From NCBI GenBank assembly GCA_050295955.1, contig JBNKQQ010000024.1, positions 13,225 through 77,224 of the forward strand: a stretch of 64,000 bases of DNA, given 5' to 3'. This document shows, in pieces, positions 663 through 48,196 of this stretch. Both the position numbers and the translations under genes were made by a program. Origin of the DNA: Thiohalomonadales bacterium. GTDB lineage: Bacteria; Pseudomonadota; Gammaproteobacteria; RBG-16-57-12. Below the pieces are notes generated by a model that was given only the letters and a program-made list of their open reading frames with translations, was not told the DNA's origin and made no database searches. The stretch's first letter is position 1. Each line of letters begins with the position of its first letter.

Positions 663-664
663 GC

Positions 665-1096
665 ATGTTTTTCAATCAGGACCGAAATCAGTTGCGTCAG
701 GGCTTCTTTGATGCTTGGCAAAAACAGCAACAACGCCAGCCACTCACCCCGCTAGAGGAGATGATCACAGGTGTGATCAAGATGCATCCAGAATACCACA
801 AGCTCTTAGAAAGCTCCCAAGCCATGGAGCAGGAGTTTCCCCCTGAGCTGGGTGCCACCAACCCTTTCCTGCATATGGGTATGCATATTGCCTTACATGA
901 ACAGATCTCTACCGACCGCCCCAATGGGATTCGTGATGTAGCCCGCCAGCTATTAGCTAAACACAAAGAGGCTCATGAAGTGGAACATATGATGATGGAG
1001 CAACTGGGAGAGGAGATGTGGCGCTCCCAGCGCTACAATGTGCTACCCGATGAGCTGCGTTATCTCCAGCAGCTCAGAGAACTACTGGAGAAATAG
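665..1096 (+). CDS. DUF1841 family protein
   Basis: Motifs MHPEYH and NPFLHMGMHIALHEQISTDRP; 2 nt downstream of nth. Confidence 0.85.
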   Translation: MFFNQDRNQLRQGFFDAWQKQQQRQPLTPLEEMITGVIKMHPEYHKLLESSQAMEQEFPPELGATNPFLHMGMHIALHEQISTDRPNGIRDVARQLLAKHKEAHEVEHMMMEQLGEEMWRSQRYNVLPDELRYLQQLRELLEK

Positions 1097-1098
1097 GC

Positions 1099-1485
1099 TT
1101 AACCCCGTTTGCCAATAAGCTCAATCTGATAACCATCAGGATCCTCAACAAAGGCGATAATCGTAGTTCCTGCATTCATTGGCCCGGCATCGCGAATAAT
1201 CTTACCTCCACGACGGCGGATCTCATCGCAAGCTAGGTAAACATCATCCACCTCAATGGCCAGATGCCCAAAGCCGCTACCGATTTCATAGCTCTCCACG
1301 CCCCAATTATAGGTAAGCTCCAGCACGGTATTTTCAGCCTCATCACCGTAACCGAGAAAGGCCAGCGTAAATTCACCATCTGGGTATGCCTGCTGGCGCA
1401 ACAAGTTCATCCCTAACACCTCTGTATAAAACTGTATTGATCTCTCCAGATTGCCGCAACGCAGCATGGTGTGAAGTAGACGCAT
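1099..1485 (-). CDS. gloA: Lactoylglutathione lyase (glyoxalase I)
   Basis: [36 protein letters not shown]. Confidence 0.97.
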
Positions 1486-31394: not shown

Positions 31395-31399
31395 ATGGC

Positions 31400-32647
31400 C
31401 TACTCCCTGTTTGGTAGCTTGATAATAAAGGTAGCTCCCTGGCCCACTGTACTACTTACCTCAATGGCTCCCTGATGAGCAGTGACAATATCACTTGCAA
31501 CAGTTAACCCCAGCCCTACGCCCCCCCCCACTTCCCTCGTGGTAAAAAATGGATCAAATATATGTGCAAGTTGCGCCTCCTCGATTCCTACCCCATTATC
31601 TTCAACCACGATTTCGATGCCTGATGATGTGGTACGGCTCCTAATTTCTACCTTGCCATGAGGCACACACGCCTGCACCCCATTGAGTAGAATATTCATT
31701 AACAACTGCCCCATATCAGCAGGCATACAACGGTATCGGGGGAGTGCGGTTAAATGACATTGGAACGTTACCTCTGGTGGAGCCTGCAAGCTCACCATCT
31801 GGATGGCATTTTCGATGATCTCATTCAGCTCCACCAGCTCCTCCTCCGCACGATCAATTGCCGAAAAGTGGCGCAAGCTTTTTACAATGGCTGCCACCCG
31901 CTCAATACCATTCAATGACTCCTCCATCAAATGAGGAAAATCCTCCAGCACAAAATCCAAATCATGCTCTTGCCAATATTGCACAAACGATGACGGCATT
32001 CCCTGCTTCCGCAACTCCTGTAGCATTGGTTCAATCAAATGAAGATAACCGCATGCCGATGAGAGATTGCTTTTTACAAATCCAATCGGATTATTAATTT
32101 CATGGGCAACACCGGCAGCCAGCTGCCCAATTGACGCCTGTTTTTCTGAACGATAAAGCTGCCGCTGACGCTCCTGTAACTGCTGCAGCTGCGCTTCGAC
32201 ACGCTGCTCCAACTGTTCCGATAGCGCCTTATAGGCCATCTGTGACTGCTGTAATTCACTGTGTTTTTGTTGTAACGCCTGATAATCGTCTTTAATCGCT
32301 TCGAGGTGTAAAGATGATGCCATAAGGTAACGGGCCGTACTGCGTAGCAAGGCTTGTGCGACACCTTGCAGCGCCCTCTGCTGCGCCTCATCCACATGAT
32401 CTTCGATAGCCAGATAACCCACCGGCTCTAACTCAAAAACCAGTGGCAAAAATTGGGGGGAGTCGAGCTTTTCGGCACCGGCAATCCACTTAGCCGAGGC
32501 ATCCAATAACTGCACGGGTGAATCAGCTAAGACATGCAATTGCTCCAGCAGCTGCGCTACATTTACGCCATTCAGCAACTGCACCAAAGTAAATTCATCA
32601 TCATAACCGGATAGCAGCCCTTCTATGTGTTGTTCTCCCTGGCTCAT
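31400..32647 (-). CDS. Cytoplasmic sensor histidine kinase
   Basis: SIGQLAAGVAHEINNP H-box, NILLNG, DNGVGI, FDPFFTT, GVGLGL; no TM segments. Confidence 0.93.
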   Translation of the reverse strand: MSQGEQHIEGLLSGYDDEFTLVQLLNGVNVAQLLEQLHVLADSPVQLLDASAKWIAGAEKLDSPQFLPLVFELEPVGYLAIEDHVDEAQQRALQGVAQALLRSTARYLMASSLHLEAIKDDYQALQQKHSELQQSQMAYKALSEQLEQRVEAQLQQLQERQRQLYRSEKQASIGQLAAGVAHEINNPIGFVKSNLSSACGYLHLIEPMLQELRKQGMPSSFVQYWQEHDLDFVLEDFPHLMEESLNGIERVAAIVKSLRHFSAIDRAEEELVELNEIIENAIQMVSLQAPPEVTFQCHLTALPRYRCMPADMGQLLMNILLNGVQACVPHGKVEIRSRTTSSGIEIVVEDNGVGIEEAQLAHIFDPFFTTREVGGGVGLGLTVASDIVTAHQGAIEVSSTVGQGATFIIKLPNRE

Positions 32648-33294
32648 CCTCCCCCCTTAATCTCCTTAATAAAAGCAGACTGACTTAGGTGATGCTTTCC
32701 CGCCAATTGGTATTCACCATCCAAGCGCAGATAGAGCTGCTCCAACAAAGCAACAAAGGTCTGCACCACCCCCTCTCCCCGGCTGGCACTGCTATAACAG
32801 AGTGGCCAATTTGTTTTTTGCCAACGCGCATTAATCTCCTCTTCGGAAACGATCTGCGGTAAATCCCGTTTATTAAACTGAACGACCAAAGGGAGTCGCT
32901 CAAAATCCAAGCCAACCTTGGCACTATTTTCCGCAAGATTTTCAAAAGAGAGGGCATTATTTAGACTTTGGTTCTGCTGCGAGTCAGCGACAAACACCAC
33001 ACCATCGGCGCGGGAAAGCACCGCTTTGCGGGTACTATCGTGAGCGACCTGACCAGGCACGGTATAGAGCTTGAACTTAATTAGCAGACCAGATGGGGCT
33101 CGAATTCCCAAAGGAAATAGATCAAAAAACAGCGTGCGATCATTTTTGGTCTCAAGGGTCATCATCTCCCCCTTGAGTTGAGGACTAAGTTGATCGTGCA
33201 GACTCATTAAATTTGTCGTCTTGCCACTCAGAGCGGGCCCATAGTAGACCAACTTAAGCGTTAATCGTGACAGCTCCTCATCATACTCAGCCAT
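32644..33294 (-). CDS. mglA: MglA-family small Ras-like GTPase
   Basis: KLVYYGPALSGKTTN, DRTLFFD, LYTVPGQV, ADGVVFVADS, QFNKRD. Confidence 0.9.
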   Translation of the reverse strand: MAEYDEELSRLTLKLVYYGPALSGKTTNLMSLHDQLSPQLKGEMMTLETKNDRTLFFDLFPLGIRAPSGLLIKFKLYTVPGQVAHDSTRKAVLSRADGVVFVADSQQNQSLNNALSFENLAENSAKVGLDFERLPLVVQFNKRDLPQIVSEEEINARWQKTNWPLCYSSASRGEGVVQTFVALLEQLYLRLDGEYQLAGKHHLSQSAFIKEIKGGG

Positions 33295-33300
33295 TGTCCT

Positions 33301-34632
33301 TCACTCCAAACTCTCATCCATGACATAGATCTTAAATTGCTCATCAAAGGAGCGTTCAAATCGACGAATCTTGTCGATCAAATCGATATCAAGCACGTGT
33401 CCACGAGACAATAGCAACACACCATTACGTACAATCAGGTCACGGGAAATAATCATCCCTTCCTGCAGATCACCAGAACGAAGTGAGCGATCCTGATCTA
33501 CCCTCTCGATTGGCCCAATATCACTATATTCCGCAAACTCTTTCAGGAAGGTTTCAACAATTACCGGATCATAACGAACATGAGCATGCCTACGTAGATA
33601 TTCACAGGCCTCTTGTGCACTCATTTTTTGCGTTTTTAGAATCCCCTTCTGCAACCCATCAAACTCATCGACCACAGCTAGAATGCGAGCACCCAAAGGA
33701 ATATCTTTCCCGGATAAACCATCTGGATAGCCACGTCCGTCAAACAACTCATGATGATGACGAATAATTTTTGCTGCACCCTGCATGGGCTCAATCGACA
33801 TAATTGCAGCCTCAGCAATAATCGGATGTTCCGCAACCGTGGCCCGCTCATCCTTAGAGAGAGAATAGAATGGCGCATTGGCTAGCCGATCAGGCAGTGC
33901 CAAATAACCCATGTCATGCAACATACCGGCGAATAAAATATCCTGCAGGTCATTTTTATCCACACCTAATTTAATGGCCAGATGATAGGCCTTATCCGCA
34001 ACTGAGCGGGAGTGTCCTGTCATGGTACCACCACGCACCTCCAGTAGGTTGGCAAACATCTTCACCGTGGCACCATAGCTGTGTTTTAAATTTGAATAAG
34101 CACTTTCTAGTTGAGTATGGGCCTGGCGCAACTCTGCCGTACGCTCCCTGACCTTATCCTCCAACGAGGCATTCAGCACCTTCAGTTGCTCATTCTGTTC
34201 AGCGGTTAATGCCTGTAGGCGATCCCGTTCTTGCAGAAGCTGCTTACGCTCCAGTGCATTACGCACCGAGGTTTTAAGGTCATTCTCCTCCCATGGTTTA
34301 CTAATATATTTGTAGATGCTCCCTTCATTGATCGCCTGTATTGCGGAGCTCAAATCGGCATACCCCGTTAGCAGAATACGTATTACATCAGGCCATTTTT
34401 TCGCCGCTATCGCCAAAAACTGCGCACCATCCATCTCTGGCATTCGCATGTCGGAGATAATCAAATCCACCGCTTCCGATTCAAGAATCTCCAGCCCTTC
34501 AGCAGCACTACTTGCTGTGATGATGCGATAACCCGTTGGCCGAAATAACCGGCGCAGAGAGGACAATATATTGGATTCATCGTCCACAATCAGCAGAGTG
34601 GCATTTGCCTGCTGCATCTCCACTTCCCCCAT
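33301..34632 (-). CDS. Receiver-HD-GYP cyclic-dinucleotide phosphodiesterase
   Basis: Receiver ISDMRMP; GHSRSV, LHDMG, HHELFDGRGYPDG, ARILAVVD. Confidence 0.93.
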   Translation of the reverse strand: MGEVEMQQANATLLIVDDESNILSSLRRLFRPTGYRIITASSAAEGLEILESEAVDLIISDMRMPEMDGAQFLAIAAKKWPDVIRILLTGYADLSSAIQAINEGSIYKYISKPWEENDLKTSVRNALERKQLLQERDRLQALTAEQNEQLKVLNASLEDKVRERTAELRQAHTQLESAYSNLKHSYGATVKMFANLLEVRGGTMTGHSRSVADKAYHLAIKLGVDKNDLQDILFAGMLHDMGYLALPDRLANAPFYSLSKDERATVAEHPIIAEAAIMSIEPMQGAAKIIRHHHELFDGRGYPDGLSGKDIPLGARILAVVDEFDGLQKGILKTQKMSAQEACEYLRRHAHVRYDPVIVETFLKEFAEYSDIGPIERVDQDRSLRSGDLQEGMIISRDLIVRNGVLLLSRGHVLDIDLIDKIRRFERSFDEQFKIYVMDESLE

Positions 34633-34637
34633 CTCCG

Positions 34638-36986
34638 TTAGCCCCCTATGGCAATGTTCTCATCGAGCGAAGCCTTCACTGGTAAACGAATCGTGAAGGT
34701 AGTTCCCCTTCCCAGCTCTGTATCAATCTCTATGCGACCATTATGTTTTTCCACAATACTGAACGACAGTGAGAGCCCGAGCCCTGTCCCCTGACCTACT
34801 GGCTTTGTGGTAAAAAAGGGATCAAAGATACGCTTAATATGCTCTTCCGAAATGCCTTTTCCCGTATCAGAAAATTGCACCCATACCCACTCCCCCCCTT
34901 CCATACCGGTGCTAATCGTAATGACACCTCGCTCCTCAATAGCATGGGCAGCATTGACTAACATATTCATAAACACCTGATTCAACTGTGAAGGGATACA
35001 CTGAATGTCGGGGAGCTGACCGTACTCTTTTTTCACCTCGGCTTTATACTTCAACTCGTTCCAAACAATGTTCAGCGTGCTATCCAGGCCATCATGAAGA
35101 TTGGCCTCCTGCCACTCCGCCTCATCAACATGAGAGAAATCCTTTAGATCTTTTACGATCTGTTTTACCCGAGAGATGCCTTCCAATGATTCACCTAACA
35201 GATCCTGAATATCATCCCGCAAGAAATTCAGATCATGTTTTTTCTCCAGTGTCTGTAGCTCCTGCTGTATCTCATCCGGCAATAGCTCACGCTTCTGTTG
35301 GTAGTTGTCAATTACTTGAAAAAGGTCGCCAATGTAGCCACGCAAAGAGACGATGTTAGAGTTAATATAGCCAACAGGATTATTGATTTCATGGGCAACA
35401 CCAGCCGCTAATTGCCCAATCGATGCCATCTTTTCAGATTGTAGTAGCTGCTGTTGTGCCTCTTGTAACTGTGCCAAACTCTGTTCCAACTCATACTGTA
35501 CTTTGGCACGTTCACACTGCAGCATGTGATTGGAAATAATTTCAGAAAGTGCCGTCACAAAATAGTGTTCATCAACATGCCACTCCCGCACACGATTGCA
35601 CTGTTCTAGCGCGATCACCCCCACTGTCGTTCCCTCTGTCCAAATCGGTATATACATGGCAGAGGTAATTCCCTGAGGGCGGTAATAGCTCACTTTTAAC
35701 TCTTCCAACCCCTGATACTCTTCAGTATCTGCAATGTTCAATACTTGGCTGAACAACTCACTATGCAATCCTTTTGGGTAATCCTGAGGGGTTAATGCAC
35801 TTTTATACTCATTCTCATCCTGCAAAGAAGAGTAACGCGAATAGCTCTCAGGTAATCCTCGGCTATCAAACATCCATATCAGAACCTGGTCCACCTTTAA
35901 CGAGCGACCAATTACCCGAGTCAGCGATTTTAATTCCAGACTGAGGTCGCCACAGCTCTCCAAATCACTCCCCATTAGGTCTGCAAGAATAGAGTGCTGG
36001 TTGATCAAGCTAATCTCTTTATCTTCCAACTCCCGATTTTTCTCCATCAGGCTATTTAACAGACGTTGACGGCTGACAATTTTTTCCAATTCGTTTGCAT
36101 AAAGACTAGCAATCTCCATCTCCAAATCGCCATATTCACTACCAATTGGCTTATTGGCTACATACAGAAAACTAGGAGGACTACCATTGATTTGTATACG
36201 CTGACAGAGCAATCCTCTAATAGGCTCTTCATCACCAGCCCATCGTCCTTCGATATTCAACGCCTCAATATCGGTAATAATGGTTGGCTCAATATCCACA
36301 ATGCCTTGAAAAAGCGTTGTTAATAGCAATTCGTGGAGAGGATCCTCATCACTACTGACCATCTCAAGCAGATTACCCTCTTCATCAAAATGCCCCAGGG
36401 CACTATGGCTGGAATTGGTCAGCTCTTGTAGATCTCGCAAGTAGAGATAAAAAATCTCATGCCATTCATGAAACTCATCATCCAGCATCAAGCGATCCAG
36501 CTCCCTTACTTTGGCGGCGGCCATAATAAAGGTTGTCATGCGATTGATCTCTCGGGAGAGGTTATTGGCCAGCAGGCGCTTATCATCTAATAACTTTCTG
36601 ACCTCCAAATCGGAATGATGTAGAGATAGACTCAATTCAACCGCCACTTCCAACTCGCGTGGCTTAAGGGGCTTTACCAGATAGTGATAGACTCCCAGCT
36701 TCTTCGCCCGCTGAAAAGCCTCTTCGTCGTCAGCGCCAGTCAAAAGAATGACCGGAATACTATACTCATTCAGAATAATCTCAGCCGCATTCAGACCACC
36801 TAACTCACCTTCAAGAACAATATCCACCAATACAAGATCAGGCTGTAATGTTGAAAGTGAATCGATCGCTTGTTCTGCGCAAGGAAAGGTGGCGATGACA
36901 GAGTAGCCGGCCTGTTCAAGGGTAAGAGTGTAAAGGGATAGCAGGTCGCTATCATCATCGACAATAATCAACCGCTCCTTCGTCAT
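34638..36986 (-). CDS. Hybrid histidine kinase (receiver-GAF-GAF-HisKA-HATPase)
   Basis: N-terminal receiver, two GAF-like segments, SEKMASIGQLAAGVAHEINNP; start moved to ATG 36986 behind AAGGAGGAG RBS. Confidence 0.92.
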   Translation of the reverse strand: MTKERLIIVDDDSDLLSLYTLTLEQAGYSVIATFPCAEQAIDSLSTLQPDLVLVDIVLEGELGGLNAAEIILNEYSIPVILLTGADDEEAFQRAKKLGVYHYLVKPLKPRELEVAVELSLSLHHSDLEVRKLLDDKRLLANNLSREINRMTTFIMAAAKVRELDRLMLDDEFHEWHEIFYLYLRDLQELTNSSHSALGHFDEEGNLLEMVSSDEDPLHELLLTTLFQGIVDIEPTIITDIEALNIEGRWAGDEEPIRGLLCQRIQINGSPPSFLYVANKPIGSEYGDLEMEIASLYANELEKIVSRQRLLNSLMEKNRELEDKEISLINQHSILADLMGSDLESCGDLSLELKSLTRVIGRSLKVDQVLIWMFDSRGLPESYSRYSSLQDENEYKSALTPQDYPKGLHSELFSQVLNIADTEEYQGLEELKVSYYRPQGITSAMYIPIWTEGTTVGVIALEQCNRVREWHVDEHYFVTALSEIISNHMLQCERAKVQYELEQSLAQLQEAQQQLLQSEKMASIGQLAAGVAHEINNPVGYINSNIVSLRGYIGDLFQVIDNYQQKRELLPDEIQQELQTLEKKHDLNFLRDDIQDLLGESLEGISRVKQIVKDLKDFSHVDEAEWQEANLHDGLDSTLNIVWNELKYKAEVKKEYGQLPDIQCIPSQLNQVFMNMLVNAAHAIEERGVITISTGMEGGEWVWVQFSDTGKGISEEHIKRIFDPFFTTKPVGQGTGLGLSLSFSIVEKHNGRIEIDTELGRGTTFTIRLPVKASLDENIAIGG

Positions 36987-37201
36987 TTCTCCTCCTTGAG
37001 TCGTCAATTGAACATCTTGCCGCTGTTAACCCGCCGTTGTCTGCACGGGAACCTTTCGATAATGGAATAATGCATGGCTAACCACCCACGCGATTGCAAA
37101 AAATTGCCACCACGCCCCATACGACATTAATAACGACCAGTGCTCAATAATCCTAAGAAAAACTGTTAAAATGGCACCTCATTTAACTCGACAATTTCAT
37201 C

Positions 37202-38125
37202 ATGACCCCAGCACTTCGTATTCAAGGCCTGCGCAAGACCTATAAGAACGGTTTCACCGCACTAAGCGGTATTGACCTGGAGGTACAGCAGGGGGATTTT
37301 TTCGCCTTACTGGGCCCCAATGGTGCAGGCAAATCCACTACCATCGGTATCGTCAGCTCTCTGGTTAACAAAAGTGGCGGCCAAGTGGAAATCTTTGGGC
37401 ACAATCTGGATAGCGAACTAGAGGCAGCCAAATCCTGCATTGGCTTGGTTCCCCAAGAGTTTAACTTCAACGTATGGGAGCCGGTTGCTGAAGTTGTCAT
37501 CAACCAAGCGGGTTATTATGGCATCGACCGCACTACAGCCACCCAACGGGCAGAGAAGTATCTAAAGCAGTTGGGATTATGGGAAAAGCGTAGCTCCATG
37601 TCTCGCAACCTCTCTGGCGGTATGAAGCGCCGTCTAATGATTGCACGGGCATTGGTACATCAGCCTAAGTTATTGATTCTGGATGAGCCTACCGCTGGTG
37701 TAGATATCGAAATCCGCCACTCCATGTGGCAATTCCTTAAACAGATTAATCGCGAAGGGACGACGATCATCCTCACCACCCACTATCTGGAAGAGGCTGA
37801 GAGCCTTTGCCGCAATATTGCCATTATCGATCAAGGTCAAATTGTAGAAAACACCAGCATGAAGCATTTGCTTAACCAACTGAATGCAGAAGCTTTTGTC
37901 CTGGATTTGGCAAACCCCATTGACTATACACCTGAATTAGCCGGTCACGATATTATCATCCTGGATGAAACCACTTTAGAGGTGTGCATCGACAAGCAGA
38001 TCGGCATTAACAAACTGTTTGAAGACCTCAGCCAACACAACATCAAAGTATTAAGCATGCGTAATAAAACCAACCGCCTGGAACAGCTATTCATGGGCCT
38101 GGTTAATCAGAGCAATGGTGAATAA
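37202..38125 (+). CDS. yadG: ABC-2 transporter ATP-binding protein (YadG-like)
   Basis: GPNGAGKST, LSGGMKRR, LILDEPT, TTHYLEEAE, SMRNKTNRLE. Confidence 0.92.
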   Translation: MTPALRIQGLRKTYKNGFTALSGIDLEVQQGDFFALLGPNGAGKSTTIGIVSSLVNKSGGQVEIFGHNLDSELEAAKSCIGLVPQEFNFNVWEPVAEVVINQAGYYGIDRTTATQRAEKYLKQLGLWEKRSSMSRNLSGGMKRRLMIARALVHQPKLLILDEPTAGVDIEIRHSMWQFLKQINREGTTIILTTHYLEEAESLCRNIAIIDQGQIVENTSMKHLLNQLNAEAFVLDLANPIDYTPELAGHDIIILDETTLEVCIDKQIGINKLFEDLSQHNIKVLSMRNKTNRLEQLFMGLVNQSNGE

Positions 38126-38128
38126 GCT

Positions 38129-38902
38129 ATGACCGCTAAAGAGAAATACATCGCATTTCAGACGATTTTAATCAAAGAGATTCTGCGATTCTCTCGAATC
38201 TGGCTACAGACCATTCTGCCGCCAATGATTACCACTGCCCTCTATTTCATCATCTTCGGTAACCTGATTGGCTCACAGATCGGTGATATGGATGGATTCC
38301 GCTATATGGATTATATCGTCCCTGGCCTGATCCTGATGGCCATCATCACCAACTCCTATAGCAATGTGGTCTCATCATTCTATAGCTCTAAATATCAAAA
38401 CCACATTCAAGAGATGATTGTTGCCCCGCTACCCAACTATGTCATCCTACTTGGCTTTGTCGCAGGAGGCGTGGCTCGTGGGCTGGTAGTAGGCCTATCA
38501 GTGACCATTGTCTCGCTCTTTTTCAGTGAGCTAAATATCGCCCACTACGGGATCACTTGCAGTATTGCGGTTCTCACCGCCATCCTCTTCTCCATCGCGG
38601 GTTTAATCAATGGCATCTATGCCAACTCTTTTGATGATATCTCCATCATCCCGACCTTTGTACTCACCCCTCTCACCTATCTGGGCGGGATCTTCTACTC
38701 TATCAGCATGCTTCCAGAATTCTGGCAAGATGTCTCACTAGCGAATCCCATTCTCTATATGGTGAATGGCTTCCGCTACGGCATCCTGGGAAACTCGGAT
38801 ATTGCACCTATCGCCTCTTTCAGCCTGATTAGCATCTTTATTGTCGGACTCTATCTTTATGCCCTCTGGTTACTCAACAAAGGACATGGCATCCGCGCCT
38901 AA
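38129..38902 (+). CDS. yadH: ABC-2 transporter permease (YadH-like)
   Basis: RIWLQTILPP, NSYSNVVSSF, FDDISIIPTFVLTPLTYLGG; about 6 TM. Confidence 0.92.
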   Translation: MTAKEKYIAFQTILIKEILRFSRIWLQTILPPMITTALYFIIFGNLIGSQIGDMDGFRYMDYIVPGLILMAIITNSYSNVVSSFYSSKYQNHIQEMIVAPLPNYVILLGFVAGGVARGLVVGLSVTIVSLFFSELNIAHYGITCSIAVLTAILFSIAGLINGIYANSFDDISIIPTFVLTPLTYLGGIFYSISMLPEFWQDVSLANPILYMVNGFRYGILGNSDIAPIASFSLISIFIVGLYLYALWLLNKGHGIRA

Positions 38903-38955: not shown

Positions 38956-39753
38956 ATGAAATCACTCAGCATTAGTGACCTTTCACTACTCATCGTTGAA
39001 CCTTCCAGTACCCAAGCCAAAATCATTGGCGACAAACTCCATGAACTGCAACTCAACCGACTCGAATTTGTCAGCAATGGCGAAGAGGCGTTGCAGTCCA
39101 TGTTGCAGAATCTCCCCGACCTAGTCATTAGCAGCATGTATCTCCCCGATACGGATGCGGCTAAGCTGGTACAAACCATGCGAAGTTCAGAAAAGCTGTG
39201 TGACGTTCCCTTCATGTTAATCTCCAGCCAGACCTCCTTCGCTGAACTGGACCCCCTCCGCCAAGCAGGCGTAGTAGCGATTCTCCCCAAGCCCTTCGAC
39301 ATCACTGATCTCAAGCGTGCCCTCAACTCGACACTCGACCATATTTGCGTGGATGAAGATGCTCTGGCAGATATTGATGTGGATAACCTATCCGTTCTAG
39401 TTGTGGATGATAGCTCCACGGCTAGACGCCATATCAGCCGAGTACTCGCTAATCTGGGGATCGAAAACATTACCACGGCTAAAAACGGTATTGAGGGTGC
39501 GCAAAAACTGAATGAAAGCTACTTCGATCTGGTTGTTACCGACTACAACATGCCGGAGATGGACGGTGAGCAGCTCACCCGCTATATCCGCGAACACAGT
39601 TCACAACGCTCAATCCCTGTACTCATGGTAACCAGTGAAGAAAGTGGCAGTCGGCTCTCTGCCGTTCAGCAAGCTGGCGTATCCGGCATCTGTGACAAAC
39701 CCTTCGACCCTCAAGTGGTCAAACAGCTCATCCGAAGTGCGTTGAGCGAATAA
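38956..39753 (+). CDS. Tandem receiver-domain protein (pseudo-receiver plus canonical receiver)
   Basis: Domain 1 VEPS/VISSMY (Asp replaced by Ser)/KPF; domain 2 VDDS/VTDYNMP/VTS/KPF. Confidence 0.9.
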   Translation: MKSLSISDLSLLIVEPSSTQAKIIGDKLHELQLNRLEFVSNGEEALQSMLQNLPDLVISSMYLPDTDAAKLVQTMRSSEKLCDVPFMLISSQTSFAELDPLRQAGVVAILPKPFDITDLKRALNSTLDHICVDEDALADIDVDNLSVLVVDDSSTARRHISRVLANLGIENITTAKNGIEGAQKLNESYFDLVVTDYNMPEMDGEQLTRYIREHSSQRSIPVLMVTSEESGSRLSAVQQAGVSGICDKPFDPQVVKQLIRSALSE

Positions 39754-39761
39754 TTTCAGGC

Positions 39762-39911
39762 AAAAAAAAGAGGCCAGCAGCTAATTGGGGGGAGCCACCG
39801 ACCTCATACTAGAAAGTAGGAGGAGAATCATTGCATTCGCAATAATTCAACTTCGAGTGGCAATGAAAGCGGCTTCATGCCGAGGAGGAAGGGGGAGCCA
39901 CTCGAAGCTGC
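39762..39911 (-). ncRNA. Candidate sigma54-dependent structured sRNA, copy 1
   Basis: Stem CAGCUUCGAGUGGC/GCCACUCGAAGUUG with a C-rich loop, hairpin GAAUUAUUGC/GCAAUGAUUC, linker UCCUCCUACUU, terminator GAGGUCGGUGGCU-CCCCCCAAUU-AGCUGCUGGCCUC-U8. Confidence 0.75.
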
Positions 39912-39920
39912 TATATATAA

Positions 39921-39937
39921 TACAAAGAACGTGCCAA
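39921..39937 (-). promoter_or_regulatory. Sigma54 -24/-12 promoter, copy 1
   Basis: Minus strand TTGGCACG-TTCT-TTGTA (GG-N10-GT). Confidence 0.75.
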
Positions 39938-39954
39938 CTTCAAATAACCTAGCA

Positions 39955-39967
39955 AATCAATAGTTTA
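39955..39967. promoter_or_regulatory. IHF site, copy 1
   Basis: AATCAA-TAGT-TTA is an exact WATCAANNNNTTR match, between the promoter and the upstream palindromes. Confidence 0.65.
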
Positions 39968-39990
39968 CTAAATTAGTCAAAATAAAGCAG

Positions 39991-40026
39991 TGCGGCATAT
40001 CCCGCAATCGTGCTGCATTTCACAAA
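39991..40026. promoter_or_regulatory. Paired upstream activator-like sites, copy 1
   Basis: TGCGGCATATCCCGCA (39991) and TGCTGCATTTCACAAA (40011), 20 bp apart; a related TGCGGCAAATACTACA lies at 40066. Confidence 0.5.
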
Positions 40027-40161
40027 TTATTTTTCAAATACAGCGACTTATACCCCTTCAGATAATGCGGCAAATACTACACATACCACTATGTGCTGAC
40101 AAGCTCAATTCTCATACTAAAAAACTCATCTGAAATAAAAATAATCAGGCTTCACTTAGGC

Positions 40162-40303
40162 AAAAAAAAAGGCCATGCACTATGGGGGTAGTACATGACC
40201 TTATATAAGTAAGTAGGAGAAGAATCATTGCTATGCAATAAATCTTATCGCGCTCACAGTGTGTTGGCATCTGCCGGAGGGGGGTTCACACTGTGTCGCG
40301 ACA
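40162..40303 (-). ncRNA. Candidate sigma54-dependent structured sRNA, copy 2
   Basis: Stem UGUCGCG-CACAGUGUG/CACACUGUG-CGCGAUA with a CCCCCCUCC loop, hairpin UUAUUGC/GCAAUGA, linker UCUCCUACUU, terminator AAGGUCAUGUACUA-CCCCCA-UAGUGCAUGGCCUU followed by a U-run. Confidence 0.75.
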
Positions 40304-40313
40304 ATTAATATAA

Positions 40314-40330
40314 TACAATCACCGTGCCAA
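40314..40330 (-). promoter_or_regulatory. Sigma54 -24/-12 promoter, copy 2
   Basis: Minus strand TTGGCACG-GTGA-TTGTA; same spacing as copy 1. Confidence 0.75.
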
Positions 40331-40347
40331 CTTTTAATTTTCTTTAT

Positions 40348-41424
<1,077 letters not shown>

Positions 41425-41657: not shown

Positions 41658-44600
41658 TCATATCCCATACATAGGATAGGTATCATCAAAATGATTCCCC
41701 CCTGGAATAACGTTGGCGTGCAAGTTAAATATTGACCCCAAAAAACCTCCATTAACGGGGTCAAAAGCTTTATTCGTTACGTCAACATTTAGTGTCGCAC
41801 CTGCCCCAAATGGAAGCGAGTGTACTTCAGCATACGGAGCAGCTCCGGAAGCTACAAGATTTGAAGCATCTAAAGCTCCTAAGCTGTGTCCAGTTAGTGG
41901 AGTGCCCCATGAAGTAAACATATAATGTAAACTTGAAGCATTTGGAAGCCCTTGGTAGGCCAGAGCAACATCCGCCACATCAAATATAAAGCTCCCACAA
42001 TATGCAGCTCTAGTGCAAAACCCTCCCATATGCCCCTCAGTCGCGTTAAATCTCGATCCAAGCATGGCATTTCCCATACCAGATATTGCAAGCAACCCTA
42101 TATTTAACTCGGTCATAGAAACACCATGACGTGCTACCTCTTTAGCTAATTTATTACTGAAATAGCTATTCAGCCGGTAATCTACAATAGAAGAGGCAAC
42201 AGATGCAGCAGCCCAAGCGGCACTTTGCGTTCTAGCATACATACTCACAGCATTCGCATACCCTCCCATTACTGGTGACAAGATACTGTATGCACGCAAG
42301 CCATGTGCAGCACCATATTTCAACGAATCTTCAATACTAGCTCCATTAGAATACGCCCTATTTGCTTTGTACATCCCGTATGACATAGCAATACCTTTTG
42401 CACATAAGGCACCAGCGCTCATCGCACACGTCGCAACACCCGCCTGAACAGCTAATATATTCCTTCCATCCTTAGTTTGAGCCATCATCGCAGATCCAGT
42501 AATAGGGTCAATTGCCTGAACAACTGTAGCAACTACAGTCTTTACATCATTGCTCAAACTTTTCCACTTCTTACTCAACCAGCTATAACCTGACGGATCA
42601 ACACGAGATAGCGGATTATTGTCAGTGTAGGAATAACGATTCCATCCTTGCGTACTAGCGGGATAAGCGACTCTAGGATCAGCGCTTAGGAAACGCGCTA
42701 GTTCTGGATCATATACCCGCCCCCCCATATGAATCAGCCCAACATTGTCTAACGACTTATGCTTGGTATAAGCTAGCCCGGTGATACCGGATGTCATCAA
42801 TGCCACATAACCATCATTCCATTGCGCATCACGGCGTTTGCCAAATGGATCATAGCTAAAGCGTTCTGCAATTTGCCCATTCTCTTTGGTAATGACAGAG
42901 ATAGACCCTAAGTGATCGGTATGGAAGTAGCGTAAGGTAGTTGCCGCATTACTCTTACGAGTGTGTACCGCCACCAACTTACTGCCTGCGTAAACGTTAT
43001 TACGATACTCAATCGTGCCTCCGGGCTTATTCACCTGCTCAAACAGCTTGCCCACATAGCGGCTGGTCGTCGTACCTTGGGAGGTTACCGCTACTTGCTT
43101 ATACAGATTACGGTTAGGCCCATAGGTAAACGCAGTACTGTTTGTACCTTGGGTAATCAGCGAAGGCTTATTATACGAGGTGTAGTTAACCACTCTCCCT
43201 CGGCCATTAATCATGTTGCCGTTGGCATCGTAACTGAGGCTTGCACCCTGCACATAGGTCACTGCATGGGGACCGGCACCATTTTGGCCATAGATGTAGC
43301 TGCCTAGATCACTACTGTATTGAATATTCCCCACCGCATCATATTGATAACTTTTCGCGGTAGTGCCATTGATGGTGGCATTGGTTAATCGATTAAGCGC
43401 ATCATAGGTAAACGTTTCAGTAACACCGGTTTGCCCCAACCATTTTTGGTTATAGTCATAACGGGCTTCTAGATTGCCCAGATTATCAAAGTCATATTCC
43501 AGATACTGAATCTGGGCACTCGCTCCGGTGGTAATAGACGCCAGCGCCCCACTGATGGGATGGAATTCTCGCACAGTACTTAAGCCATTACCCAGCGCTT
43601 CCCAGGTCACATTGCCATTGGCATTGGTGCTGACACGCGACCAAAAAGTATAGCCAGAGCCAACTTCCTTCACATCGGTTAAGAAGCCGGTTGCACTATA
43701 GACATTTTGAGTTTTGAAACGACCAGAGCTCCCCGATGCGGGATAGGTCACATACTGTAGCCGACTCAAATTGTCGTATTGGTTGGTCACTACATAATCC
43801 ACACCATCCAATTTAGTGGTTACTGATGATGCTCTACCCAAATTATCGTAGGCATAGATCTCTTGATAGTTATCACTACCTCTCACCATTTTGTGCAGCT
43901 TGCCTTTTCCTGCACCAGCGGCGGTATCGTAATACCAAGTGGTAGTTCCTCCGGTCGTTTCCGAGCGAGTCTTTAAGCGATTGAGCGTATCGTAGCTCAT
44001 AGTGATGGTTTGGTTCTTGGCATCGGTTTGGCTTCTGAGTAAACCCAGCGAGTCATAGCGATAGCTCCACGCGCCAAGATTAGGATCGTCAACTCCAATC
44101 TTATTACCTTGCGCATTATATTGATAGGTGACTCGATTTTGGTAAGGATCTACCGTCTCCATAAGGCGACCAAAGCCATCATAGTAGTAACGATTCGCGT
44201 TATTGTTGCTATCGATACTTTGTAGCAACTTACCCGAAGAGCTCTTGTACTGCACCGAGGTCAAGGCAGTGGTGCCATTATTCCCTTTGCGATAGCGAGT
44301 GGTTGCTGTTTTTACTCCTTGGCCAGATACAAATGGGTAATAGATCATTACCTCGTCAGGATTAGCGACATTCGTATTACCTGGCAATAACATCTTGCTG
44401 AGGCGGCCATAGCTATCATAGATATATTGTTTCCAATAGATAACCGGACCATCAAACTCATTGCGTGACTCTTTGGTGACACGGCCTAAATTGTCATACA
44501 CCTTGTATTGATGAACATACTCACCATCCACGTTCTGTACATGGCTTGAGGTTTGTCGACCAAGAGTATCATAGTGAACCATCTTGATAGGCTTGCCAGA

Positions 44601-47600
44601 ACCTGATGATTTGACATAAAACTTATCGTATTGACCACAATAAACACCCGGATCACAGGAGAGATATTCCCACTGGGTATACGTTCCATCAGCACGATTC
44701 TCTCGAATCTTCCGCGCAAAAGCATCATACTGCCAAGAGGTCGTAATGCCATTGATTCCGACCTGAGAAACCGTATTACCCGTCGCTCTATCAATCACCA
44801 TTGATGATGTTTGCAACAGGGGGTTGGTTGTAGTAATTGTTAACTGAGTCGGCGTATAGCTATAACTTGTTGATGTCGTTCTCGCGACAATGTTTCCAGT
44901 AGCGGTACCATCACGACCTTCAATTTTATGAGAGTTCTGATTGCCATAGTTGTTATAGGTAAAGGTCTCTGTACGCTCAACATTGGTACCGACTTGACTG
45001 GTCTTAGTCCATAGTGCTCCAGTACCAGGATAGTAAGTAAAGTCTGTTCTATCCGTCACTGGTAAAGCATAACTTCCTGCCACCAGACTAGATGGTGTAG
45101 AAGAGACCATCGAGGTACAGATATTAAATATCCAGTTTGCCGTATCAGCAGCACACGGAGTGTTCTCTTGGGTTGTGAAGGAACCATCAAGTAACGTCGT
45201 TACGCTTCGACCAACTATCCCATAAAGATTAATATTGTAGTTATTAGTGGTATCTTCAGAGATCTTCCCTCCACTTGCAGGCTCATAGGCAGTGGAAATA
45301 GATTGGCTTAGATATGGGTAAGGCCGGCCTTTGTCTGAGTTAATACTCAGCCATGTATTAACGTTCTTCCCAACTAATTTACCGTTAACAATGGTCTCAG
45401 TTTTATTCACCAAGCCATTGGCCCAATAGTCAGAAGGCATAGTTTGCTGACGATAATAGGTGTTTACTGTTGTATTGCTCTGCTGATTTGTTATCGATGT
45501 TTTGGCAAAGCCAAGAAAGCCTCGACCTTTCACATTTATCTTTGCACCCTCATAATGATATGAATATGTATTTTGCCCCCCTATTCCATTACTTATAGAA
45601 TAATTGGAAGCAACATACATTGATCCTTGGTAATCACGAATGGAATAGGGATATGTTTGGGTATTGTACTTTGTATAGACTGCATCATCCGTTATTGTCG
45701 TATATTGAATATCTGTTCTTACACTGGAGCCAGACTCAATACTAATGACTTGGTCCCGACCTGCGCTACCATGTGAGACATACAAATCATGTTTCTCATA
45801 AGGAACCCAAGCCTTATCAGGTAATCCATCACCATTTATGTCAGGATAACCTTCGTGCCAACTATTGTAAGCATAGGGGTTCCCCCCCCCCGCAGAACCC
45901 GCCGAAATCCAAATTTTTGGCGTCGAGAAACCATTACCCGTTGATAACGCAACATAAAGATCATGTCGACCAGATGGCACCCATGCAAAGTCAACAAGAC
46001 CATCACCATTTACATCAATAGCTGCTTCATGCCGCCCTTCAAAACCATATGGCTTTGAATATGTTGATGGATACTCACCAAGCCATATTGTCGGCGTTGA
46101 GAAAGAGGTGCCTGTTGATAGTGCTACATAACGCTCTTGCCTACCATAGGGGACCCAGATTTTGTCCGCTAAGCCATCACCATTCACATCACCATAATGT
46201 TCATGCCAACCATTGTATCCATACGGATTAGCACCATCTGCTGAACCCGCGGCTAACCATATCTGGGGAGCTAAAAAACCATTTCCGTTACCTAATGCCA
46301 CATATAGATCATGCCTCTGGTATGGCACCCATAACTTATCTAGCAGACCATCACCATTCACATCTACATACTGTTCATGCCTACCAATGTATCCATATGG
46401 ATTAGCACCATCTGCAGCGCCAGCGGCAATCCAAATTGTTGGCGTGGAAAAACCATTACCCATTGATAAAGCAACGTAAAGATCATGTCGACCAGATGGC
46501 ACCCATGCAAAGTCGACAAGGCCATCACCATTTATATCAATGGCCGCTTCATGCCGCCCTTCAAAACCATATGGCTTTGAATATGTTGATGGATCCTCAC
46601 CAAGCCATATTGTCGGCGTTGAGAAAGAGGTACCGGTTGATAGCGCGACATAACGCTCTTGCCTACCATAGGGAACCCAGATTTTGTCCGCTAAGCCATC
46701 ACCATTCACATCACCATAATGTTCATGCCAACTATTATATCCATACGGATTAGCACCATCTGCCGATCCTGCTGCCAACCATATTTTAGGCGTCGAAAAG
46801 CCATTATCAGAAGCTAATGCAACATATAAATCATGCCGACCAGATGGAACCCATAATTTATCTTGTCTCCCATCACCATTTACATCGGCATAGCTTTCAT
46901 GCCTACCTTCAAATCCATATGGGTTTGCACCGCCAGCAGCCCCAGCATTAATTTTAAGCTGTGGAGTTTCAAAGGAAGGAAGCGATGTATTTTCTACAGA
47001 TTCCCACTTTATCTTTACAGGGTCCTTACATACACCATAAGCACATTCAGCAATGGATTGAATTAAACTTCTATTAGTAGAATAGCTATTAACATATGAA
47101 ACAGTATATGCCCTTATCTCAGATAGATTGTGCTGAACTCTTATTCCCTTAAGCCTAAACGGCGTACTTATTTTGGCACCTGCAGTAAATCCAGTGAAAA
47201 TATCACTGCGATTTTCATAATCAAAAATTAACGAAGTATTTCCCTCTGCATAGTCTATCTGGCTAACATGATAATAGCCTTCATCACGATTTTGGGTATA
47301 GTTATAAATTATCTGATTACCAAAGCGATCAGAGATTTTAGTCACTGGCCAAACATATGAGTAAACTTGACCGTTTGATTGATTCTTTATGGCAATAGGC
47401 ATACCACCATATTCAAAAATACGACCCGATTTATCTATAACTTCAAAATATTGTGGTGCATTATTGTAAGTGCCATAAGAAATGACTCTTGAGTAAGATT
47501 CAATTTCAGTTCTGTATTCTGTGCCGGAAGCCCCATATGCACCAGAAACAGCAAAAAGCTGCTGCCCATCCAAACAGAAACGATCAGAGCTATCAAATTT

Positions 47601-47921
47601 AACTCCAGCCACTTCACCATTTTGTTCGATTGTTTTTCCGCAACGGGTTATCGATGAGAGTCCACCTAAACTCCAGCCAACACCCAAGAGTCCATTTCCC
47701 CCTTGACTGTTGTAATTAAGAGAAATCCCTGGCTGTAAGCCATTGATACCGGGAGGAACTTCAATAGGAATTGAATAACTTGCTGCACCGGTAGGGCTAA
47801 CATCAAAATTACCGGTTAATGAGCCATTATAAGTAGTCGCATTTGCATGTGTTGAGAGACACAAAACAAACAAAGCAACCAGCCATGCATAGCTGACCTT
47901 CATTTTCATACAGATATCCAT
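41658..47921 (-). CDS. Secreted SpvB-N/FG-GAP/RHS-YD repeat protein (TcB-TcC fusion-like) with a lipase-like C-terminal domain
   Basis: Signal peptide ending THANA; GAASYSIPIEVPPG...GVGWSLGG SpvB N-terminus; DxNGDG repeats; GRGFLGF; YD repeats; TDHLGS and PLSRVDPSG core; GHSLG in the tip. Start may be 47909 or 47903. Confidence 0.92.
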   Translation of the reverse strand: MDICMKMKVSYAWLVALFVLCLSTHANATTYNGSLTGNFDVSPTGAASYSIPIEVPPGINGLQPGISLNYNSQGGNGLLGVGWSLGGLSSITRCGKTIEQNGEVAGVKFDSSDRFCLDGQQLFAVSGAYGASGTEYRTEIESYSRVISYGTYNNAPQYFEVIDKSGRIFEYGGMPIAIKNQSNGQVYSYVWPVTKISDRFGNQIIYNYTQNRDEGYYHVSQIDYAEGNTSLIFDYENRSDIFTGFTAGAKISTPFRLKGIRVQHNLSEIRAYTVSYVNSYSTNRSLIQSIAECAYGVCKDPVKIKWESVENTSLPSFETPQLKINAGAAGGANPYGFEGRHESYADVNGDGRQDKLWVPSGRHDLYVALASDNGFSTPKIWLAAGSADGANPYGYNSWHEHYGDVNGDGLADKIWVPYGRQERYVALSTGTSFSTPTIWLGEDPSTYSKPYGFEGRHEAAIDINGDGLVDFAWVPSGRHDLYVALSMGNGFSTPTIWIAAGAADGANPYGYIGRHEQYVDVNGDGLLDKLWVPYQRHDLYVALGNGNGFLAPQIWLAAGSADGANPYGYNGWHEHYGDVNGDGLADKIWVPYGRQERYVALSTGTSFSTPTIWLGEYPSTYSKPYGFEGRHEAAIDVNGDGLVDFAWVPSGRHDLYVALSTGNGFSTPKIWISAGSAGGGNPYAYNSWHEGYPDINGDGLPDKAWVPYEKHDLYVSHGSAGRDQVISIESGSSVRTDIQYTTITDDAVYTKYNTQTYPYSIRDYQGSMYVASNYSISNGIGGQNTYSYHYEGAKINVKGRGFLGFAKTSITNQQSNTTVNTYYRQQTMPSDYWANGLVNKTETIVNGKLVGKNVNTWLSINSDKGRPYPYLSQSISTAYEPASGGKISEDTTNNYNINLYGIVGRSVTTLLDGSFTTQENTPCAADTANWIFNICTSMVSSTPSSLVAGSYALPVTDRTDFTYYPGTGALWTKTSQVGTNVERTETFTYNNYGNQNSHKIEGRDGTATGNIVARTTSTSYSYTPTQLTITTTNPLLQTSSMVIDRATGNTVSQVGINGITTSWQYDAFARKIRENRADGTYTQWEYLSCDPGVYCGQYDKFYVKSSGSGKPIKMVHYDTLGRQTSSHVQNVDGEYVHQYKVYDNLGRVTKESRNEFDGPVIYWKQYIYDSYGRLSKMLLPGNTNVANPDEVMIYYPFVSGQGVKTATTRYRKGNNGTTALTSVQYKSSSGKLLQSIDSNNNANRYYYDGFGRLMETVDPYQNRVTYQYNAQGNKIGVDDPNLGAWSYRYDSLGLLRSQTDAKNQTITMSYDTLNRLKTRSETTGGTTTWYYDTAAGAGKGKLHKMVRGSDNYQEIYAYDNLGRASSVTTKLDGVDYVVTNQYDNLSRLQYVTYPASGSSGRFKTQNVYSATGFLTDVKEVGSGYTFWSRVSTNANGNVTWEALGNGLSTVREFHPISGALASITTGASAQIQYLEYDFDNLGNLEARYDYNQKWLGQTGVTETFTYDALNRLTNATINGTTAKSYQYDAVGNIQYSSDLGSYIYGQNGAGPHAVTYVQGASLSYDANGNMINGRGRVVNYTSYNKPSLITQGTNSTAFTYGPNRNLYKQVAVTSQGTTTSRYVGKLFEQVNKPGGTIEYRNNVYAGSKLVAVHTRKSNAATTLRYFHTDHLGSISVITKENGQIAERFSYDPFGKRRDAQWNDGYVALMTSGITGLAYTKHKSLDNVGLIHMGGRVYDPELARFLSADPRVAYPASTQGWNRYSYTDNNPLSRVDPSGYSWLSKKWKSLSNDVKTVVATVVQAIDPITGSAMMAQTKDGRNILAVQAGVATCAMSAGALCAKGIAMSYGMYKANRAYSNGASIEDSLKYGAAHGLRAYSILSPVMGGYANAVSMYARTQSAAWAAASVASSIVDYRLNSYFSNKLAKEVARHGVSMTELNIGLLAISGMGNAMLGSRFNATEGHMGGFCTRAAYCGSFIFDVADVALAYQGLPNASSLHYMFTSWGTPLTGHSLGALDASNLVASGAAPYAEVHSLPFGAGATLNVDVTNKAFDPVNGGFLGSIFNLHANVIPGGNHFDDTYPMYGI
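45765..46945 (-). repeat. Seven 58-aa (174-bp) FG-GAP/VCBS-like repeats containing a 522-bp higher-order duplication
   Basis: Units PYG..HE..DVNGDG..D..WVP....LYVAL; DNA near 45959 recurs near-identically at 46481. Confidence 0.9.
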
Positions 47922-48090
47922 ATATTAAAAATTAATAAAAAACAGATGGATTTTACCTGCATGCATGGGCACAACCTATTCAGATTTGTCTTATTAGGCT
48001 GTAGGAATTATCTTGCTTATACACCAAATATAAAGGGGTAATTGAGGATGGATGCTTTAATAGTCACAATGAGTGCTTTATCTTCTTATA

Positions 48091-48134
48091 AATAAAAAGC
48101 CACCACAGATGTCATTCTATGGTGGCTTTTTATT
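48091..48134 (-). terminator. Bidirectional terminator-like hairpin between the membrane-protein gene and the RHS gene
   Basis: AATAAAAAGCCACCACAGA-TGTCAT-TCTATGGTGGCTTTTTATT. Confidence 0.75.
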
Positions 48135-48196
48135 GATGCAGGCTGTGACAACTTATTTAGTACAATTCACTGCAGTAAATCCATTACATCGCTTAT

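Follow-up and report, generated by a model that had tools for sequence, protein, structure and literature searches.

The Qrr1 to Qrr5 small RNAs (sRNAs) of Vibrio are homologs encoded in several copies, each with a sigma-54 promoter, an unpaired conserved seed and a Rho-independent terminator, and they are the output of the enhancer-binding regulator LuxO, whose box reads TTGCAWWWTGCAA; qrr1 adjoins luxO. C-rich loops that pair with G-rich sequences at or near ribosome-binding sites are known from the sRNAs sX13 of Xanthomonas and RepG of Helicobacter, and the same is reported for RsaE/RoxS of Firmicutes. GlmY acts by protein mimicry, GlmZ activates glmS, and GlrR sites read TGTCN10GACA. GlmY and GlmZ are reported to be two homologous enterobacterial sRNAs with sigma-54 promoters and upstream activator sites (PMC3045617). 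ar14/NfeR1 (RF02344) is described as having three hairpins, each with an identical CCUCCUCCC in an unpaired region, and as silencing mRNAs at their translation starts; NfeR1 is activated by LsrB and repressed by NtrC (PMC10746234). Here we describe an sRNA locus in a 64,000-nt stretch of DNA, the window, from a Thiohalomonadales bacterium (assembly GCA_050295955.1, contig JBNKQQ010000024.1, positions 13,225 to 77,224). A 750-bp intergenic gap between hemF and a gene for a tandem-receiver protein holds two direct-repeat modules on the minus strand, 393 to 399 bp apart, named copy A and copy B. They form a genuine pair of sibling sRNA genes, conserved and under structural constraint, whose family is new to Rfam. 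The gap probably encodes two trans-acting sRNAs that are made from sigma-54 promoters and repress translation at Shine-Dalgarno regions.

Both modules specify an RNA of the same architecture (Table 1): a long 5' stem (P1) that encloses a C-rich internal loop together with a small GGC/GCC hairpin, another hairpin (P2) with the arms UUAUUGC and GCAAUGA, an unpaired CUYCUCCUACUU and a terminator with a CCCCC(C) loop. The preliminary description of positions 39762 to 40330 had read this layout, in two minus-strand modules of ~395 bp, from the letters alone, and both the folds and the spacing of the direct repeats agree with it. With the G/T of TTGT set at -13/-12, the promoter spacing predicts the same starts that it had given, near 40303 and 39910; with the RNA ends taken at the T-runs, the transcripts would end at ~40163 and ~39763. 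Copy A folds with -52.2 kcal/mol (z -7.9) and copy B with -58.1 kcal/mol (z -5.7), and none of 200 shuffles folded as well as either RNA, whereas the plus strand folds less well (z -2.7 and -4.2). Conserved loops and a conserved linker between differing stems had also been noted. Indeed, an alignment of A with B keeps the promoter, P2, GCAATGATTCTYCTCCTACTT and the T-run with the following GCC, but not the arms of P1.

RNA structure is under selection at this locus. In separate alignments of four A-types and four B-types, made with MAFFT without fitting to a model and folded with RNAalifold, compensatory changes were found in 9 of 40 and 8 of 36 pairs, respectively. An alignment of all 16 members of the family, fitted to the covariance model R2 (see below), has standard pairs in 92.2% of its cells, compared to 28.6 to 47.9% when the partners are slid by 1 to 3 columns, and changes on both sides in 30 of 40 pairs, counts that are favoured because the alignment was fitted to the model. 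On none of five measures did any of 500 column shuffles reach the observed value. Every pair covaries in the inner 5' stem (9 pairs) and in the terminator stem (13 pairs). The unpaired segments, in turn, are conserved: every member has a C-run or CCUCC in the 5' loop, 15 of the 16 share the linker GAYUCUYCUCC, and 13 of the 16 carry a terminator loop with four or more C. Selection on RNA structure, which had been proposed from the two copies of the window, is thus supported by the compensatory pairs within the A- and B-types as well as by the covariation among the 16 members. Each RNA has its own predicted promoter, a Rho-independent terminator, no gene downstream in cis, no coding function and, within a structure under selection, a conserved unpaired seed, as is generic for trans-acting sRNAs. 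A leader RNA is excluded, since each RNA has an intrinsic terminator at its end and the gene that follows is convergent.

The genome from which the window is taken (4.03 Mb, 84 contigs) has only these two copies, and each of the three other species in the genus carries one copy of either type, A and B, both with TGGCAYG-N4-TTGTA. A covariance model made from the four A-types alone retrieved the four B-types with E values of 2e-9 to 8e-5. Therefore, A and B are homologous, and the paralogous pair of the preliminary description is real. It had also suggested a covariance model and a search of relatives as a check; the model was built, 16 members were found and their stems covary. For this search, R2 was made from all eight copies of the genus and run on the whole GTDB order (7 genomes, 3 genera). 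It found matches in both genomes of a second genus, G005 and G006 (E 5e-5 and 3e-4). The G005 locus has an additional upstream copy (E 9e-4), so that the pair stands in tandem, and in G006 the upstream neighbor is lost at the contig end. A match in the 86% complete G004, of the third genus (E 0.007), was rejected: it has no promoter, and the upstream region of hemF in that genome does not have the elements. A pattern scan of metagenome contigs retrieved one that repeats a known copy exactly and three that together contribute five new copies, with two A/B tandems among them. In total, the family counts 16 distinct members, which come from 6 of the order's 7 genomes and from three metagenome contigs, and wherever the flanks are readable, the A/B tandem lies between hemF and the same receiver gene.

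Searches beyond the order gave no further members. When R2 was run with the stricter filters of Infernal on 151 genomes, one per family of the class, only G000 and G001 matched and the 149 others did not; blastn of copy B against 40 relatives gave matches in the genus only. A strict promoter-plus-core pattern scan of 185,579 species genomes retrieved 22 stretches, of which four were true members (from two genomes, both of this genus), four were sRNA-like and 14 were apparent chance matches in genes. The family is, as far as searched, confined to one small gammaproteobacterial order. Within the window, a model match at 48008-48135 (+, E 0.016) was rejected as merely a bidirectional terminator. 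This hairpin, GCCACCACAGATGTCATTCTATGGTGGC, lies at 48090-48135 on both strands, is flanked by A- and T-runs and separates two minus-strand genes.

Each module opens with TTGGCACG-N4-TTGTATTATAT. One sigma-54-type string per module had been given in the preliminary description; TGGCACG-N4-TTGTATTATAT indeed has just two matches in the 64-kb window, both on the minus strand (40329-40308 and 39936-39915), compared to 0.01 expected matches, and 0 of 100 shuffles gave two. When the 16 promoters were aligned by anchoring on TGGCA, TGGCAYG was kept in all and TTGTA at -12 in 14, and the GG at -24 was invariant, at constant distances from the -12 G and from the beginning of P1. Bacterial enhancer-binding proteins (bEBPs), the activators of sigma-54 promoters, usually bind ~80-150 bp upstream, often at paired sites, with an IHF site in between. 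Such a layout was found here: all 16 promoters have two adjacent imperfect palindromes of 16 to 18 bp, approximately TGCGnnAWATGCCGCR and ~21 bp apart, which stand at a fixed offset from the -24 element, ~55-92 bp further upstream. B-types also have an IHF-like TAACCTATTGATT between palindromes and promoter, a short motif and thus weak evidence. Since the putative activator sites reach 40418, the functional unit extends past 39762-40330.

The best matches to the palindrome in the whole 4.03-Mb genome lie upstream of the two sRNA genes, with the very best at copy B, and all four matches in the window (two sites, both strands) are at these genes. Among 276 sigma-54-like strings of the genome, only the two sRNA promoters have a palindrome with at most two weighted mismatches 30 to 260 bp upstream. 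That no other sigma-54-like promoter has the palindromes points to a dedicated enhancer-binding activator and suggests one such regulator with the sRNAs as its chief or sole output, as with Qrr. The genome has a single rpoN, hfq, and genes for 11 proteins that strongly match the sigma-54 activator (AAA+) domain; sigma-54 and bEBPs are thus both encoded. The sigma-54 dependence claimed in the preliminary description is well supported by this architecture, in which the conserved upstream palindromes complete the layout around the -24/-12 element; only the -12 part departs from expectation, having GT rather than GC.

How does the pair relate to the systems named at the outset? With Rfam 15, no match at the gathering threshold was obtained in the window or in five related or look-alike loci, and at E values up to 10 the region 39700-40400 gave only four sub-threshold matches (trpB motif, TarA, ar14 and rli117), all far below their cut-offs. 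The proposed novelty therefore holds with respect to Rfam 15, and Qrr, sX13 and CcsR/cuckoo, which had been mentioned as analogies only, are indeed good analogies and not memberships. Judged from titles and the beginnings of abstracts, no published description of such RNAs was found, while supplementary tables of transcriptome studies might list them under other names.

With Qrr the pair shares the homologous copies, a sigma-54-type promoter for each, the unpaired conserved seed and the Rho-independent terminator. This promoter likeness is one of motif alone, with GT in place of GC at -12. Unlike Qrr, the copies stand in tandem, no bEBP gene adjoins them, the seed is anti-Shine-Dalgarno-like and C-rich, the upstream sites are TGCGnnAWATGCCGCR palindromes, and no Rfam Qrr family matched, either in the window at the gathering threshold or in 39700-40400 at E values up to 10. 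The LuxO box, allowing up to two mismatches, had three matches in the window, none near the sRNA genes, compared to nine expected. ar14/NfeR1 and CcsR/cuckoo also have several hairpins, variable stems and conserved unpaired anti-Shine-Dalgarno motifs. ar14 is the best of the sub-threshold Rfam matches, but it scored 17.8 bits (E 0.59; whole copy B only) against a gathering threshold of 58.8, far too low for membership. Moreover, the identical motif of ar14 was not found: the corresponding segments of copy A are CCCCCCUCC, CUUCUCCUAC and CCCCC, CCUCCUCCC occurs in neither window copy, and CCUCC is present in both 5' loop and linker only in the B-type. The promoter is of the sigma-54 type and the host is a gammaproteobacterium, whereas ar14 is alphaproteobacterial. 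C-rich loops, including that of the terminator, are shared with sX13, RsaE/RoxS and RepG; these differ in promoters and hosts, none matched through Rfam, and the long conserved linker seed and the A/B tandem are additional here. GlmY/GlmZ are likewise two homologous sRNAs with sigma-54 promoters and upstream sites, but again there was no Rfam match, and the palindromes differ from GlrR sites. In function and design, LuxO-Qrr and ar14/NfeR1 are the closest systems; in sequence and structure, the pair is a separate family.

Transcription, dependence on RpoN and a bEBP, pairing to Shine-Dalgarno regions and the targets are what we infer for these genes, as follows. A dedicated bEBP would bind the two adjacent upstream palindromes and activate a separate sigma-54 promoter for each sRNA. 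Each RNA would expose up to three unpaired pyrimidine-rich segments, the 5' C-rich loop, the linker GAUUCUYCUCCUACUU and the C-rich terminator loop, which would mimic the anti-Shine-Dalgarno sequence of 16S rRNA, pair with the G-rich ribosome-binding regions of several mRNAs and so repress their translation. Specificity would come from the sequences on either side of the CUCC core, Hfq may be involved or not, and a single signalling pathway would have the pair as its output, much as in LuxO-Qrr. The unpaired segments do contain CUCC or CCUCC, the core of the 16S anti-Shine-Dalgarno, and the linker is conserved over ~19 nt, beyond what a terminator or a protein site needs. Because of these conserved segments and the design resembling ar14/NfeR1 and the C-rich-loop RNAs RsaE/RoxS, translational repression by pairing with ribosome-binding regions is taken as the most likely mechanism, and we consider it probable.

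Targets were sought by a crude scan of 3,633 putative start regions in a single genome. The start region of flgD ranked first genome-wide, with 14 consecutive pairs to the B-type linker. Against the sRNAs of its own species, flgD reached -26.2 kcal/mol in G000, where 0 of 200 shuffled seeds were as good, and -23.4 kcal/mol in G002 (1 of 200), which makes it a weak target lead. Further matches included glgC, nhaA, a CitMHS transporter gene, a pgl-like gene, an E1 dehydrogenase gene, mreD, a thioredoxin gene and the genes of three proteins without Pfam matches.

We also entertain, tentatively and with more doubt than confidence, that a dedicated enhancer-binding regulator has no transcriptional output other than this pair, as an independently evolved counterpart of LuxO-Qrr in a poorly studied gammaproteobacterial order, with the always adjacent receiver protein maybe in the pathway and a regulon, possibly including flgD, that is split between A and B, whose loop motifs differ. 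If so, one signalling pathway would have been converted wholly to post-transcriptional control by two anti-Shine-Dalgarno siblings, and flgD would bring flagellar hook assembly into the regulon. Through this locus, a lineage without described riboregulators would gain a well-defined sRNA family of 16 members, together with its covariance model, conserved promoter and activator sites, and the palindrome would be a direct handle for the regulator and its signal. It would also be a natural case both for the divergence of sibling sRNAs, with stems free to change and seeds constrained, and for the wiring of sigma-54 enhancer-binding proteins to RNA outputs only. Since the family is small and taxonomically narrow and its design (C-rich or anti-Shine-Dalgarno seeds, sigma-54 siblings) is known, we regard it as useful rather than surprising.

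Several observations, besides the favoured pairing counts given above, speak against siblings that are transcribed by sigma-54 and repress translation. The sigma-54 consensus at -12 is TTGC, with a usually conserved C; here, TTGT is found, and GTGT or GTGG in the second copies of G005 and G006. A weak sigma-70-like site, TTAAAA-16-TATTAT (9 of 12 matches), overlaps the promoter of copy A. The 64-kb window encodes no sigma-54 activator protein, and none was assigned as the cognate bEBP. The linker motif is lost in the B-type of locus L071, and three members lack the C-rich terminator loop. As for the targets, pairing to flgD is weaker elsewhere (shuffled seeds were as good in 8 of 200 cases for G001 and in 20 of 200 for G003), in G005 and G006 it does not surpass that of shuffles, and the conservation of the match could be explained by its overlap with the stop codon of the upstream gene. 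The complementarity of fliN, another top match, is not conserved. The prediction is noisy, with crude gene calls and with an anti-Shine-Dalgarno that matches every strong Shine-Dalgarno, and in the one genome scanned the top matches have no clear functional theme.

If the RNAs are real, they could instead titrate a protein or an RNA, for example by sponging G- or GGA-rich decoys of the CsrB/RsmZ type or a protein that binds C-rich loops. A molecule that has several unpaired C-rich motifs and is encoded twice shows a design typical of decoys, the genome has two csrA genes, no coherent set of mRNA targets emerged, and the C-rich motifs are kept (16 of 16 in the 5' loop, 13 of 16 in the terminator) even where the linker is lost, as in the B-type of L071. 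However, conservation of the ~19-nt linker far exceeds a CCCC motif, as expected of an antisense seed, and to our knowledge no bacterial protein binds C-rich loops. RNAs that are similarly built, ar14/NfeR1 and RsaE/RoxS, are reported to act on the translation start regions of mRNAs. We therefore hold titration to be unlikely and keep translational repression as the preferred reading.

Transcription by sigma-70, alone or in addition, with the TGGCAYG-N4-TTGT strings and the palindromes serving another regulator, deserves little credit in our view. The A/T-rich stretch after TTGT does contain -10-like hexamers (TATTAT, TATATT), one of them part of the site at copy A mentioned above, and the -12 element does deviate from TTGC. 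These hexamers are not conserved, though, and the second copies of G005 and G006 have TGGCATG without a TATAAT-like box. Sigma-70-like sites were not enriched in the region (3, compared to 2.2 in shuffles), whereas the GG at -24 with its fixed spacing is invariant. Moreover, paired palindromes at 55 to 92 bp together with an IHF-like site fit the layout of a bEBP and are too far upstream for a usual activator of sigma-70.

The neighborhood raises the question of an action in cis: the elements could affect the divergent hemF by promoter interference, or they could form a barrier to read-through that comes from the convergent receiver and ABC transporter genes, or be antisense to it. The order hemF, sRNA A, sRNA B, tandem-receiver gene and ABC-2 transporter operon is kept in all loci with enough flank, the second genus and the metagenome contigs included. 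hemF adjoins the sRNA genes in six other loci with 84 to 89% identity, and the receiver gene is kept in L047, L048, L051 and L071; the receiver proteins of syntenic loci are 66 to 82% identical. On the plus strand, a near-consensus sigma-70-like site, TTCACA-18-TATAAT (11 of 12 matches, 40285-40314), points toward hemF and overlaps sRNA A at its 5' end and promoter. If it were real, the transcription of hemF and that of sRNA A would interfere with each other, but it may be a chance match, since its -35 lies in non-conserved stem sequence.

An effect in cis would fit this strict synteny, the position of the plus-strand site within the 5' end of copy A, and the distance of only 9 nt that separates the sRNA B end from the stop codon of the receiver gene. 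It is nevertheless very improbable: the -35 in the P1 stem is not conserved in sequence between species, G004 retains hemF without the elements, and selection acts on the fold of the minus strand, where the covariation includes G-U pairs and which the plus strand does not match in folding. Conserved unpaired seeds and separate promoters and terminators are features of RNAs acting in trans, as we propose for A and B.

The gap had been called free of open reading frames (ORFs). This stands insofar as no reading frame is conserved among the 16 members, whose longest ATG ORFs have 14 to 44 codons of unrelated sequence; taken literally it does not, as mechanical ORFs of 41 to 63 aa are present. A small mRNA or dual-function RNA with a hydrophobic peptide encoded in the core (AUG AUU CUU CUC CUA CUU, MILLLL...) is hardly credible: an AUG opens the core in most copies and the A/B difference of CUU to CUC is synonymous, but this AUG has no Shine-Dalgarno, lies within the 3' arm of P2 and is ACG in two B-types (G002, G003), the frame stops after 7 to more than 25 codons with unrelated tails, and third codon positions vary no more than the rest of the core. 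With no conserved ORF and a 1-nt indel in the P2 loop that shifts the frame between A-types, coding was rejected.

As to the activator, seven of the 11 proteins with a sigma-54 activator domain were labelled by NCBIfam, Pfam and neighboring genes. NifA and NtrC score above the NCBIfam cut-offs. For a FleQ/FleR-like pair, the name derives only from the best sub-threshold matches and from proximity on contig C71; PilR is recognized by its PilS and pilin neighbors, and a hydrogenase-linked regulator by a hypD neighbor and a gene of the AIR-synthase family, probably hypE. L062 has no Fis-type DNA-binding domain (Pfam HTH_8). The proteins L053, L056, L057 and L061 are candidates for the activator. 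NifA itself (L052; contig C6 of G000, 32516-34072) has 711 bits, compared to an NCBIfam equivalog cut-off of 529, and together with the regulator next to hydrogenase maturation genes it suggests that the organism fixes nitrogen and uses hydrogen.

Table 1. Predicted elements of the sRNA locus and neighboring genes, in window positions
Feature	Position	Strand	Remarks
Copy A, sigma-54-type promoter	40314..40329	-	TGGCACGgtgaTTGTA; -24 GG, -12 GT
Copy A, putative upstream activator sites	40383..40418	-	palindrome 1 TGCGTGATTTGCCGCA, 40418-40403; palindrome 2 TGCGTGTGAAATAGCGCA, 40400-40383
sRNA copy A (A-type), ~141 nt	40163..40303	-	fold, A-type covariation, terminator scan, covariance model 134 bits
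Copy A, P1	40303-40246	-	C-rich loop CCCCCCUCC at 40284-40276
Copy A, P2	40245-40221	-	
Copy A, conserved core	40229-40211	-	AAUGAUUCUUCUCCUACUU; unpaired from 40220
Copy A, terminator	40202-40163	-	loop CCCCC at 40188-40184
Copy B, sigma-54-type promoter	39921..39936	-	TGGCACGttctTTGTA
Copy B, putative upstream activator sites	39991..40024	-	TGTGAAATGCAGCACG, 40024-40009; TGCGGGATATGCCGCA, 40006-39991
Third related site near copy B	40081-40066		TGTAGTATTTGCCGCA
sRNA copy B (B-type), ~148 nt	39763..39910	-	fold, B-type covariation, covariance model 95 bits
Copy B, P1	39909-39849	-	loop UCCCCCUUCCUCCU at 39896-39883
Copy B, P2	39848-39825	-	
Copy B, conserved core	39832-39814	-	AAUGAUUCUCCUCCUACUU; UCCUCC unpaired
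Copy B, terminator	39805-39763	-	loop CCCCCC at 39792-39787
hemF, oxygen-dependent coproporphyrinogen III oxidase	40504..41424	+	Pfam PF01218, E 6e-134; divergent conserved neighbor
Tandem-receiver protein, 265 aa, two receiver domains	38956..39753	+	PF00072, two stretches; convergent conserved neighbor
ABC-2 transporter operon	37202-38902		upstream of tandem-receiver gene
Signalling cluster	29166-37007	-	receiver-GAF-histidine kinase, 789 aa; receiver-HD-GYP, 443 aa; Ras/Arf-like small GTPase, 216 aa; kinase, 415 aa; receiver-MshEN-T2SSE ATPase, 742 aa

The four sRNA-like stretches from the scan of species genomes (L019, L021, L024 and L032) do not match covariance model R1. Two of them, at 6533-6635 (-) of L021 from Methylobacillus rhizosphaerae and at 653-755 (-) of L024 from a Methylophilaceae bacterium, match neither R2 nor Rfam; they have a consensus sigma-54 promoter, TGGCACG-N4-TTGCT, and an RNA of ~100 nt with an unpaired CUCCUCCUCCUU directly before a strong terminator. 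Upstream are TGCACCAC-type strings that we take to resemble NtrC sites, and the two may represent a separate, nitrogen-regulated family of anti-Shine-Dalgarno sRNAs in Methylophilaceae. The other two, which had no Rfam match either, are at 892-995 (-) of L032, a gammaproteobacterial metagenome-assembled genome, and at 1014-1132 (+) of L019 from uncultured Gammaproteobacteria. Here, TGGCAYG-N4-TTGC is followed by a structured RNA that carries an unpaired CUUCUCCUCCUU or CUCUCCUCCUACUU, with a clear terminator in L032.

Elsewhere in the window, the minus strand has a dense signalling cluster at 29166-37007 (Table 1). Directly downstream of hemF, at 41658-47921 on the minus strand, a Pfam scan found SpvB, FG-GAP and RHS-repeat domains in an ORF of 2087 aa, whose predicted product resembles an insecticidal toxin of the Tc/RHS type.

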